10,882 nucleotides of DNA from the IMG/VR virus record IMGVR_UViG_2681813320_000023; one strand, given 5' to 3'. Within the stretch, counting starts at the first letter, position 1; the number at the start of each line of letters is the position of its first letter. The position numbers and the translations under genes were made by a program. Source of the stretch: a virus. Lineage: Duplodnaviria; Heunggongvirae; Uroviricota; Caudoviricetes. The notes beneath the pieces were generated by a model. That model worked only from the letters and a program-made list of their open reading frames with translations, did no database searches and was not told the DNA's origin. Below are positions 2,973 through 4,048 of the stretch, piece by piece.

Positions 2973-3429
2973 AAACCGCTTGCAAAAAATTATCACGGGG
3001 CTGTATGCTTCCCCCGTCGCCCACATGGCGACCGGGTTTGACAGCCTGAATACATCTGGCGGACAGCCGCCCACATCCGATAAGCGGTTTTTTTGTGTCC
3101 GTAAACCTACCCATACCCGCATTATGGCGGGGCGTAACGGGGGAGCCTTTGTGCTCGCTGGTTTCCAGATGACCAGTCTGTCAACCCTGTTACGTCTCGC
3201 CACCATGTTTGACAGCGTAGTAGCGAGACTCCTTAAAATTCATCTGGGAGCCTTTCACATGGCTGTATCCGCACGCCCTTACTTTGTCTGGCGCTTTATG
3301 CAGTGCCTGACAGACAGCATTGCAATATTCACCGTTACCGCTGCCACTGAGCGCGAAGCACGCGCACAGCTGCCGCACGCACATCTTATTTTTGTCGCCC
3401 GTATTCGTCAGGGGGTGTGCCATGCCTGA
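2965..3429 (+). CDS. Hypothetical protein (155 aa) whose C-terminal ~56 aa is a second Icd-like copy; alternatively a separate 56-aa Icd-like ORF starting at ATG 3259
   Basis: ATG 2965 overlaps the upstream stop (ATGCGTAA), with AGGGG at 2953-2957. The C-terminal segment MAVSARPYFVWRF...TEREAR...FVARIRQG is paralogous to ORF 2775..2972 at protein and nucleotide level. GGGAG lies 8 nt upstream of the internal ATG 3259, so the true start is ambiguous. Confidence 0.4.
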   Translation: MRKNRLQKIITGLYASPVAHMATGFDSLNTSGGQPPTSDKRFFCVRKPTHTRIMAGRNGGAFVLAGFQMTSLSTLLRLATMFDSVVARLLKIHLGAFHMAVSARPYFVWRFMQCLTDSIAIFTVTAATEREARAQLPHAHLIFVARIRQGVCHA

Positions 3430-3742
3430 CATGACCAATTACCAGTACCTGATTAATACGCATTTTAACTGTGAGCATGATATTGCTAAAAAGGTTTATT
3501 CCGCTGCGGATGGGGCTACTGACAATATATCAATGGCTGTTTCGTCAATTGGTAGCCTGATGTGGTATGCGTCAGAAAATAAGGAATATGACGAAAAGGC
3601 CATGCGCATTGATATGGGTAATATCGGTTTGTTACTGGCAATGCTTGGACAGTTTGATATTTCGTTACGGTGCACCATTGAAAATGCCACAGATGCATTA
3701 AATGCTATAAAGAAAGCGAATACTGATTTAAATCGGGGATAA
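3422..3742 (+). CDS. Hypothetical protein (106 aa), AT-rich cargo ORF
   Basis: ATG 3422 overlaps the upstream stop by 8 nt (ATGCCTGA), with RBS AGGGGG at 3410-3415. Stop TAA 3740-3742. Markedly AT-richer than flanking genes. No recognisable family. Confidence 0.45.
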   Translation: MPDMTNYQYLINTHFNCEHDIAKKVYSAADGATDNISMAVSSIGSLMWYASENKEYDEKAMRIDMGNIGLLLAMLGQFDISLRCTIENATDALNAIKKANTDLNRG

Positions 3743-3748
3743 ATAATC

Positions 3749-4048
3749 ATGAGAACATATTTATCTGGCTTGACTGCCAGCGGTTATGCACACCCCCAAA
3801 TTATCCCCGGCGCTATTTATCTGGATAAGAACGGTAACAGAGTAACGGTAAAAGAACTGATGTTTGACCGTGTGTATTTTATCCGTGATGGCTATTCATT
3901 TCTTAGTTCGCTGAACGTGGAGATCTTTATTAGCAGATTCAGGCGGGAAATCCCGCTTTCCAGAAATAACCATGTGTCATGTATGGATGTTGATAAAAAA
4001 CTACAGGAACTAAAAAACATGATTGCCGCGTGGAGAGAGCAGAAATGA
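3749..4048 (+). CDS. Hypothetical protein (99 aa), AT-rich cargo ORF translationally coupled to the primase
   Basis: ATG 3749 with GGGGA 9 nt upstream. Its stop TGA 4046-4048 overlaps the primase ATG 4045 (ATGA overlap). No recognisable family. Confidence 0.45.
   Translation: MRTYLSGLTASGYAHPQIIPGAIYLDKNGNRVTVKELMFDRVYFIRDGYSFLSSLNVEIFISRFRREIPLSRNNHVSCMDVDKKLQELKNMIAAWREQK

Follow-up and report, generated by a model that had tools for sequence, protein, structure and literature searches.

Two co-inherited small genes ahead of the replication gene of a phage-inducible chromosomal island

Background

What do phage satellites gain from the small genes that lie directly in front of their replication gene? 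Phage-inducible chromosomal islands (PICIs) of Gram-negative bacteria are common, yet these genes are without a known life-cycle function, and RgdR, a protein encoded at this position, is known only through its side-effects on virulence genes. The question is raised by IMG/VR record IMGVR_UViG_2681813320_000023 (Caudoviricetes), whose 10,882 nucleotides were analysed here as a whole (hereafter the window). In it, two open reading frames, ORF A and ORF B, precede a gene for a primase-like replication initiator. The original prediction described them as an AT-rich two-gene cargo coupled into this gene, and considered derepression of a helper phage, interference with it or an anti-phage function; such a helper-derepression or anti-phage role of the pair is unproven. 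According to our reading, to which we assign a probability of roughly 55%, ORF A and ORF B would constitute a conserved, co-inherited module of the satellite induction/replication programme, and not defence cargo. Our confidence in the operon-level description is high, whereas that in the biochemical roles of the two proteins is low.

ORF A and ORF B are tightly packed cistrons of an early operon

Both open reading frames were found where they had been predicted:

3422..3742, + strand: ORF A, 106 residues, ATG at 3422, TAA at 3742, Shine-Dalgarno sequence AGGGGG at 3410-3415
3749..4048, + strand: ORF B, 99 residues, ATG at 3749, TGA at 4048, Shine-Dalgarno sequence GGGGA at 3735-3739

They are indeed AT-richer than their neighbours, with GC contents of 39.6% (ORF A) and 41.7% (ORF B) against 46-56% in all other genes of the window (window mean 48.3%); values below those of ORF A and ORF B occurred only in intergenic stretches. 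The genes are tightly packed. ORF A starts within the preceding Icd-like gene 2, overlapping the end of that gene, including its stop codon, by 8 nt (ATGCCTGA, 3422-3429), a feature not remarked on in the original prediction; the spacer between ORF A and ORF B is 6 nt, and the predicted overlap of ORF B with the primase start was confirmed as an ATGA at 4045-4048, the primase ATG occupying 4045-4047 and the ORF B stop codon 4046-4048. No promoter-like or terminator-like sites were detected on the + strand from 3430 to 5862. The complete order is Icd-like gene 1, a1/b1 sites, C4 RNA, a2/b2 sites, Icd-like gene 2, ORF A, ORF B, primase and iteron origin, in which ORF A and ORF B come third and fourth among the cistrons of the early (replication) operon.

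Comparison with the homologous locus L017 (loci retrieved for comparison carry L numbers) gave a dN/dS of 0.21 at a dS of 1.17 for ORF A (72% nucleotide identity) and of 0.16 at a dS of 0.46 for ORF B (87% nucleotide identity), with the lengths of both conserved. Judged by these ratios, ORF A and ORF B are genuine genes under purifying selection. They are also inherited together. Among 5426 complete E. coli genomes, ORF A was intact in 474 and this ORF B clade in 472; both occurred in 471 of the 474 genomes bearing ORF A. The pair is thus carried by about 9% of complete E. coli genomes, in up to six copies per genome, and the genes downstream of it were annotated as DNA primases, DUF927 proteins or primase-like DNA-binding proteins.

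ORF B belongs to the DUF4222/RgdR family

Neither protein had been recognised as a member of a family. As for ORF B, this did not stand: the protein matched Pfam PF13973 (DUF4222) with 60.2 bits (cut-off 27, E=1.4e-16) over residues 17-67, and BLASTP aligned it with RgdR at 33% identity (E=1e-15), both proteins being 99 residues long and collinear over their full length. In an alignment of 19 DUF4222 sequences, the ORF B and RgdR clades were joined without gaps and shared 22 invariant columns, K35 included. From this, ORF B can be assigned to the DUF4222/RgdR family. The motif that gave RgdR its name was missing, residues 20-22 of ORF B reading P20-G21-A22 instead of RGD; G21 alone is invariant among these three. 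Residue 20 influences RgdR activity, in no simple way (PMC3378721).

The AlphaFold model of ORF B (pLDDT, the predicted local confidence score, 74.7 overall and 87-90 in the core) consists of a five-stranded small barrel (residues 23-66) and a long, basic C-terminal helix (78-98). Structural matches of the barrel included KOW, SH3, PWWP and Tudor-type barrels and DUF1653, the best PDB hit being the KOW domain of Spt5 (E=0.02). Structure alone did not name the family, none of these matches being sufficiently significant; they are to generic small beta-barrels, and the best viral match is an unnamed protein. The searches by profile and structure that had been proposed for both proteins were informative for ORF B, giving the family and the barrel; for ORF A, they returned gene families of unknown function and a poor model (see below).

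RgdR (ECs1581) is a 99-residue protein of CP-933C which activates the LEE1 promoter (LEE, the enterocyte effacement locus) and type III secretion, represses motility, and binds DNA without specificity (PMC3378721). ORF B resembles RgdR and its EcCICFT073 counterpart C1493 in its length, gapless alignment and predicted barrel-plus-helix build, and its stop codon overlaps the start of the island replication gene, as does that of rgdR. Unlike RgdR, it falls into a separate AT-rich clade (41.7% GC, compared with 51% for rgdR), it has PGA in place of RGD, and it is always paired with ORF A, whereas rgdR is preceded by a 77-residue gene. Based on RgdR biochemistry, the fold, the basic charge (pI 9.6) and the coupling to the initiator, ORF B is most likely a small basic DNA-binding protein, a partner or regulator whose sites of action would be the neighbouring origin or early promoters.

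A DUF4222 gene was located directly upstream of the replication gene at every junction inspected, in the window and in L001, L002, L011, L012, L016, L019 and L020, and as a remnant in L010. This set comprises E. coli, Shigella or Escherichia-like loci; the L017 contig stops inside the DUF4222 gene, and L021, in which DUF4222 is not annotated, was not screened for it. RgdR was found encoded in all E. coli PICIs analysed previously (PMC6092414), and the presence of DUF4222 upstream of E. coli PICI replication genes can be called near-universal. When species-representative genomes were scanned for DUF4222, a single locus was retrieved, from Shigella. In L010, another island of O157, a 40-residue ORF (3328-3450) that overlaps the primase start corresponds to the N-terminal 34 residues of DUF4222 (E=1.4e-9). 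It is a deletion remnant, so that an intact DUF4222 gene is not kept in every island.

The gene upstream of DUF4222 varied. In L002 (8466-8699) and L019 (4442-4675), a 77-residue acidic helical ORF is followed after a 5-nt spacer by an RgdR-clade DUF4222 gene; in L011, the neighbour is a 66-residue ORF, and for ORF B it is ORF A. A separate upstream partner gene may thus go with each DUF4222 clade.

ORF A represents an uncharacterised, predicted helical family

For ORF A, the view that no family can be recognised essentially held, since Pfam, NCBIfam and PADLOC gave no match. The only hits were to PHROGs of unknown function, among them phrog_15327 (E=5e-71). A word-indexed search retrieved close E. 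coli relatives only; a profile search run exhaustively over 1.8 billion representatives added about ten relatives of 96-105 residues and 24-37% identity, which aligned without gaps, shared a common core IGxLMFxA...(N/S)E.Y...DM.NIG.L and all matched phrog_6805. No GenBank phage was matched by tblastn with ORF A and its relative P0165. The protein is acidic (pI 4.8), soluble and predicted to be all-helical. A sequence-profile search of the PDB gave nothing below E=0.2. Profile positions 47-84 weakly matched repeated units of two TPR_12 proteins, which hints at a TPR-like hairpin, and the Pfam TPR profiles gave no match. A transmembrane location was rejected: the maximum hydropathy over 19 residues was 1.46, and homologues carry charged or His residues in both hydrophobic helices. 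Similarly, kinship with a 154-residue protein in the corresponding slot of CP-933C, hinted at by BLASTP (E=0.037), was not confirmed by hhalign and hmmsearch.

The genomic contexts of the distant relatives were as follows:

L003-L005: integrase, Icd-like gene (62 residues), ORF A-like gene, 122-residue gene, RepA/AAA_25 helicase, Clp-protease-capsid fusion
L006-L008, early part: integrase, AlpA, Bro-N, Icd-like gene, 63-residue gene, ORF A-like gene, two small genes, DUF927 primase
L006-L008, downstream of the DUF927 primase: HK97 capsid, protease and portal genes, a layout like that of capsid-forming PICIs
L013: integrase, AlpA, AntA, Bro-N, Icd-like gene, two small genes, ORF A-like gene, small genes, alpha-like primase
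L014 (lambdoid prophage): ORF A relative in an operon beside a CI-type repressor, with an Icd-like gene directly after it

In the distant islands, the family therefore holds a constant place in the early operon, upstream of three kinds of replication protein. ORF A is a member of an uncharacterised, syntenically conserved family residing in a slot known for key switches. Its position, charge and helical nature suggest, as the most likely mode of action, that it would bind another protein (for instance a repressor, Icd or a host factor) and so neutralise it when the island commits to replication.

A P1-type antisense RNA gate precedes the pair

Upstream of ORF A, the following elements were identified:

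2775..2972, + strand: Icd-like gene 1, with which the early operon begins (NCBIfam phage_ICD_like, E=5e-18; 83% identical to the CP-933C copy)
3003..3059, + strand: a1/b1 target sites of C4 (a1 TTGACAG at 3038-3044, b1 CATCTGG at 3053-3059), exactly complementary to C4
3120..3207, + strand: C4-type antisense immunity RNA (RF01695, full length, 72.6 bits, gathering threshold 45, E=5.5e-13)
3209..3250, + strand: a2 (3209-3215) and b2 (3240-3247) target sites, complementary to C4
3259..3429, + strand: Icd-like gene 2 (NCBIfam phage_ICD_like, E=1.6e-14; 50% identical to P1 Icd, E=2e-12)

The a1/b1 element scored 46.8 bits with Rfam RF03163 (c4-a1b1, gathering threshold 46.7) at 3003-3052, and the C4 cassette is 78% identical in DNA to the P1 c4 region. 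C4 positions 3178-3184 have exact complements at a1 and a2, and positions 3165-3172 at b1 and b2. The b2 site overlaps the Shine-Dalgarno sequence GGGAG (3246-3250) of Icd-like gene 2, whose ATG is at 3259. These matches and complementarities show that the operon of this island variant carries a predicted gate of the P1 immI type.

Further support came from L001, an island about 97% identical to the window. There, the C4 loop, b1 and b2 were all altered jointly (CCAGATGA/CATCTGG in the window, CTACAGT/ACTGTAG in L001), the three patches being located at 3165-3172, 3053-3059 and 3240-3247 in the window and at 8566-8572, 8453-8459 and 8642-8648 in L001, respectively. Three substitution patches that change in concert resemble a natural, compensatory switch of immunity specificity, and the coordination argues that the C4 RNA is functional.

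The organisation closely follows that of P1 immI (c4 - icd - ant1/ant2). The a1/b1 sites, C4 and the a2/b2 sites appear in the same order, b2 coincides with the icd ribosome-binding site, the 3' end of the Icd homologue is overlapped by the next gene, and a replication function lies downstream; in the P1 record, C4 is annotated as repressing icd and ant translation. Unlike in P1, the ant position is occupied by a 106-residue protein that is not related to Ant1/2 (347 residues; hhalign probability of the ORF A family with Ant1, 0.2%), an extra Icd-like copy is located upstream of the RNA cassette, and the carrier is a satellite island instead of a plasmid prophage.

As for P4, its left operon has the order CI RNA - Icd-like ORF - epsilon - orf151 - cnr/ORF106 - alpha. 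It likewise contains a C4-family RNA followed by an ORF with an Icd-like C-terminus, the end of which shares 8 nt with the next gene (epsilon in P4), and a small gene directly before the alpha-type initiator, the place held by ORF B in the window. No homology between the proteins themselves was detected: hhalign gave a probability of 0.1% for ORF A and epsilon, BLASTP with epsilon found nothing among the ORFs of all fetched loci, both ORF A and ORF B families gave at most 0.1% with P4 ORF106 (DUF5375, which we take to be cnr, the copy-number regulator), and neither ORF A nor ORF B showed homology to orf151. ORF A sits in the position of P1 ant and P4 epsilon. The positional analogy with ant and epsilon, drawn in the original prediction, was thereby borne out by the C4 RNA (3120-3207), its a1/b1 element (3003-3052) and an Icd-like gene overlapped by ORF A. 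P4 as the overall frame did not hold, the rest of the window being of PICI type (alpA regulation; PerC, lambda-type capsid, decoration and terS genes) and the element no P4-like satellite.

Several observations concern the Icd-like genes. The Prokaryotic Genome Annotation Pipeline (PGAP) called positions 2965-3429 as one 154-residue 'Icd-like protein', crossing the RNA genes. The extension to 2965 is probably wrong, the true cistron being 3259-3429. The long call across the RNA cassette recurred in L001, L019, L020 and L021 and in many RefSeq genomes, and about 147 E. coli genomes contain the chromosomal cassette with a long Icd-like annotation. Icd-like genes flank the RNA cassette on both sides in the window; most related islands have one. 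In L012, a single-copy variant, the 5' part of the Icd-like gene is fused directly to the conserved 3' end (CCGTATTCGTCAGGGGG), a junction which suggests that the cassette was gained or lost by recombination between icd copies. Furthermore, positions 3016-3094 gave a sub-threshold isrK-like match (35 bits, gathering threshold 50), which covers part of the a1/b1 element and closes with a hairpin and a T-run (GCGGTTTTTTT, about 3085-3094). In P4 and L010, isrK was matched with a full score at the corresponding site. The hairpin and T-run may act as a premature-termination site in the leader.

ORF A and ORF B occupy a mosaic slot

Between island variants, identity picks up exactly at the conserved icd 3' end. 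ORF A and ORF B are nearly always found together, yet in other islands different small ORFs lie between icd and the replication gene. In L019, for example, five unrelated small ORFs and a DUF4222 gene of the RgdR clade come after a C4-Icd cassette that is 100% identical to that of the window. The stretch between icd and the replication gene is thus a mosaic slot between two conserved recombination junctions, in which the pair represents one fixed allele. Of the predicted two-gene unit, the co-occurrence stands, and it is the slot around it that is mosaic among islands. The notion that the pair is cargo which the island could do without was not supported, because the ORF A family keeps its position in distant satellites as well and nearly all E. 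coli PICIs have DUF4222.

The island and its other genes

The element contains the set of genes typical of EcCICFT073-type PICIs, that is int, alpA, a pri-rep gene with an iteron origin, PerC and RgdR genes, homologues of capsid E/D and a terS-like gene; a length of about 10-15 kb and the lack of lysis and tail genes also belong to the definition applied. Its gene order is that of CP-933C/O-island 51 of O157:H7, and it matches the published layout of EcCICFT073, the prototype Gram-negative PICI (PMC6092414). Because of this gene order and layout, the element is classified here as a PICI of the EcCICFT073/CP-933C type. In E. coli O20:H12, a 97.5%-identical stretch is located between yljB/cspD and clpS. 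The remaining features were:

1-1218: tyrosine integrase
1593..1781, + strand: alpA, AlpA-family activator of PICI early genes (Pfam Phage_AlpA, E=5e-18)
2282..2626, - strand: small divergent gene of the YlcI/YnfO family (NCBIfam NF041551, E=4e-18)
4045..5862, + strand: replication initiator ('primase'), an N-terminal domain (residues 1-140) without a Pfam family, then D5_N, DUF5906 and Pox_D5 (Pfam and PHROG)
5875-6098: iteron origin, about 11 copies of the 10-nt GGTGAACAGT/ACTGTTCACC in both orientations, in DNA of 34-40% GC
6391-6663: PerC-family activator, full-length (E=8e-45)
7109-8164: lambda E-like major capsid protein
8176-8511: lambda D-like decoration protein
9145-9687: Nu1-like small terminase (terS)

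AlpA is the activator in EcCICFT073 (PMC6092414). Beside the YlcI/YnfO-family gene, operator-like repeats were noted at 2610-2665 (TGTGATTCAGT twice, and TGTGATTC/GAATCACA inverted). The region 2607-2690, between this gene and Icd-like gene 1, contains these repeats together with a -35-like hexamer TTGACC and is probably the early promoter and operator region. Two families connected with LEE regulation, those of PerC and RgdR, are thus represented on one island.

The initiator is about 50% identical to residues 320-776 of P4 alpha. It has no region homologous to the N-terminal primase part of alpha, so that primase activity is not evident from its sequence. Its own residues 1-140 (4045-4464) are 69% identical to the corresponding part of a RepA-type (RepA/AAA_25) helicase and 44% to that of a DUF927 protein; this N-terminal part is therefore common to enzymes with differing catalytic parts. 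The iterons directly after the primase gene presumably form the replication origin of the island. PICI origins are known to sit immediately 3' of the replication gene (PMC6092414).

A model for the pair and the alternatives

By analogy with P1 and P4, we propose that pairing of C4 with its targets would keep Icd-like gene 2 untranslated, and that translational coupling and polarity would in turn prevent production of ORF A, ORF B and the initiator. Once the gate opens, following AlpA activation by a helper phage, the four proteins would be made together. ORF A would then bind and neutralise its protein target as the island commits to replication. ORF B, co-produced with the initiator, would act at the origin or at early promoters, with spill-over onto host promoters as in the case of RgdR.

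Several points weigh against this model. The evidence on ORF A and on this ORF B clade is entirely computational. The whole stretch 2600-4400 was matched in only six genomes, plus a variant such as L020; most carriers of the pair have a single Icd-like gene without C4, and no C4 was found at E<=0.01 in L012, which represents the common single-Icd E. coli variant, or in the distant ORF A-bearing islands. Since C4 is scarce among the carriers, the RNA gate is not the general control of the pair and must be regarded as a minority feature. The adjacency of ORF A and Icd within PICIs might reflect mere operon structure. Moreover, the AlphaFold2 model of ORF A is of low confidence (pLDDT 52.7), a Foldseek search of the PDB with it was uninformative (E>=1.6 only), and the TPR-like reading is weak, drawn solely from the repeated low-scoring TPR_12 matches. 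As for ORF B, the phenotypes of RgdR may not transfer to a protein with 33% identity and no RGD motif, and the 34-residue DUF4222 remnant before an intact primase in L010 argues against an essential replication role of DUF4222.

The slot itself invites the view that ORF A, alone or with ORF B, derepresses a helper prophage or interferes with its development. ORF A lies exactly where epsilon and ant do, overlapping the end of an Icd-like ORF behind a C4-type RNA; it is small, acidic and helical, as many antirepressors are, and the slot content differs between islands, as would be expected of helper-specific factors. However, homology of ORF A to epsilon, Cnr or Ant1 was not detectable, PICIs are induced by their helpers and have no known need for helper derepression (PMC6092414), and the family accompanies lambda-type, HK97-type and Clp-protease-capsid modules as well as a lambdoid phage, thus tracking no single helper type, which leaves this explanation unlikely. 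A role in the host, where ORF B would be selected mainly for reprogramming transcription (type III secretion, motility, surface) with ORF A as a co-factor, we hold to be rather unlikely. RgdR and C1493 do activate LEE1 and repress motility, deletion of O-island 51 lowers colonisation (PMC3378721), and the PerC gene of the window represents another family of LEE activators; yet the low identity to RgdR and the PGA at residues 20-22 speak against it, a natural 94%-similar variant, ECED1_1787, is already inactive (PMC3378721), the ORF B clade is common among commensals and LEE-negative strains, and a role in the life cycle agrees better with the tight translational coupling to the initiator and with control through an immunity RNA.

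Abortive infection or superinfection exclusion, with the small ORFs, Icd and the primase forming a toxic early operon triggered by a phage protein, seems unlikely, even if a related locus gives it some substance. In the prophage-like 'superinfection exclusion' locus of ECOR61, expression of the phage accessory gene orf24 leads to programmed cell death, six genes including a long 'Icd-like' ORF, ORFs of 61 and 63 residues that overlap it in the same slot and a primase are linked, and transposon suppressors map to the Icd-like ORF and both small ORFs (Silas et al. 2023, bioRxiv 10.1101/2023.04.06.535777). The locus is built like L010, in which a C4 RNA lies within the Icd-like 'extension'. This case shows that the icd-to-replication slot can matter phenotypically. 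Unlike in the window, however, its small ORFs (of the L010 type) are proteins different from ORF A and ORF B and not homologous to them, Icd was taken as the effector in that study and the insertions in the small ORFs were possibly polar, and over-replication of a PICI is toxic by itself (PMC6092414). A defence-system identity was also sought with PADLOC, whose models gave no match at E<=1 for any of the six proteins scanned (ORF A, ORF B, both Icd-like proteins, the primase and the YlcI-like protein). Finally, the atypical composition, the mosaic neighbourhood and the DUF4222 remnant in L010 would be in line with AT-rich, non-functional filler left between two recombination junctions. This is very improbable and is excluded by the purifying selection, with dN/dS of 0.16-0.21 at dS of 0.46-1.17, frames intact across 474 genomes and family members retaining invariant residues down to 24% identity.

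The satellite-programme model also has a wider form, which we regard as doubtful. In it, the ORF A family would be a new and widespread class of effectors of the ant/epsilon slot, small, acidic and TPR-like, released upon gate opening to neutralise a specific protein, for example the repressor of the island itself, the division inhibitor Icd made alongside it or a factor of the host or helper, and common to lambdoid phages, PICIs and capsid-forming PICIs; its E. coli members would form an obligate pair with the AT-rich clade of RgdR-like DNA-binding proteins, the two together setting satellite commitment and copy number.

Conclusions

The arrangement described here is a modest variation on a PICI early operon with an RgdR-family gene and on the immunity-gated leader genes of P1 and P4, and nothing in it is categorically new. 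It does expose a recurrent annotation error, namely long 'Icd-like' ORFs that span RNA genes. ORF A and ORF B are set into a testable frame, in which a P1-type C4 gate with natural specificity variants is followed by translationally coupled cistrons. As the ORF A family is kept across several kinds of satellites, it offers a concrete way into the questions of how commitment to replication is reached in these islands and of why RgdR-like proteins always accompany the initiator.

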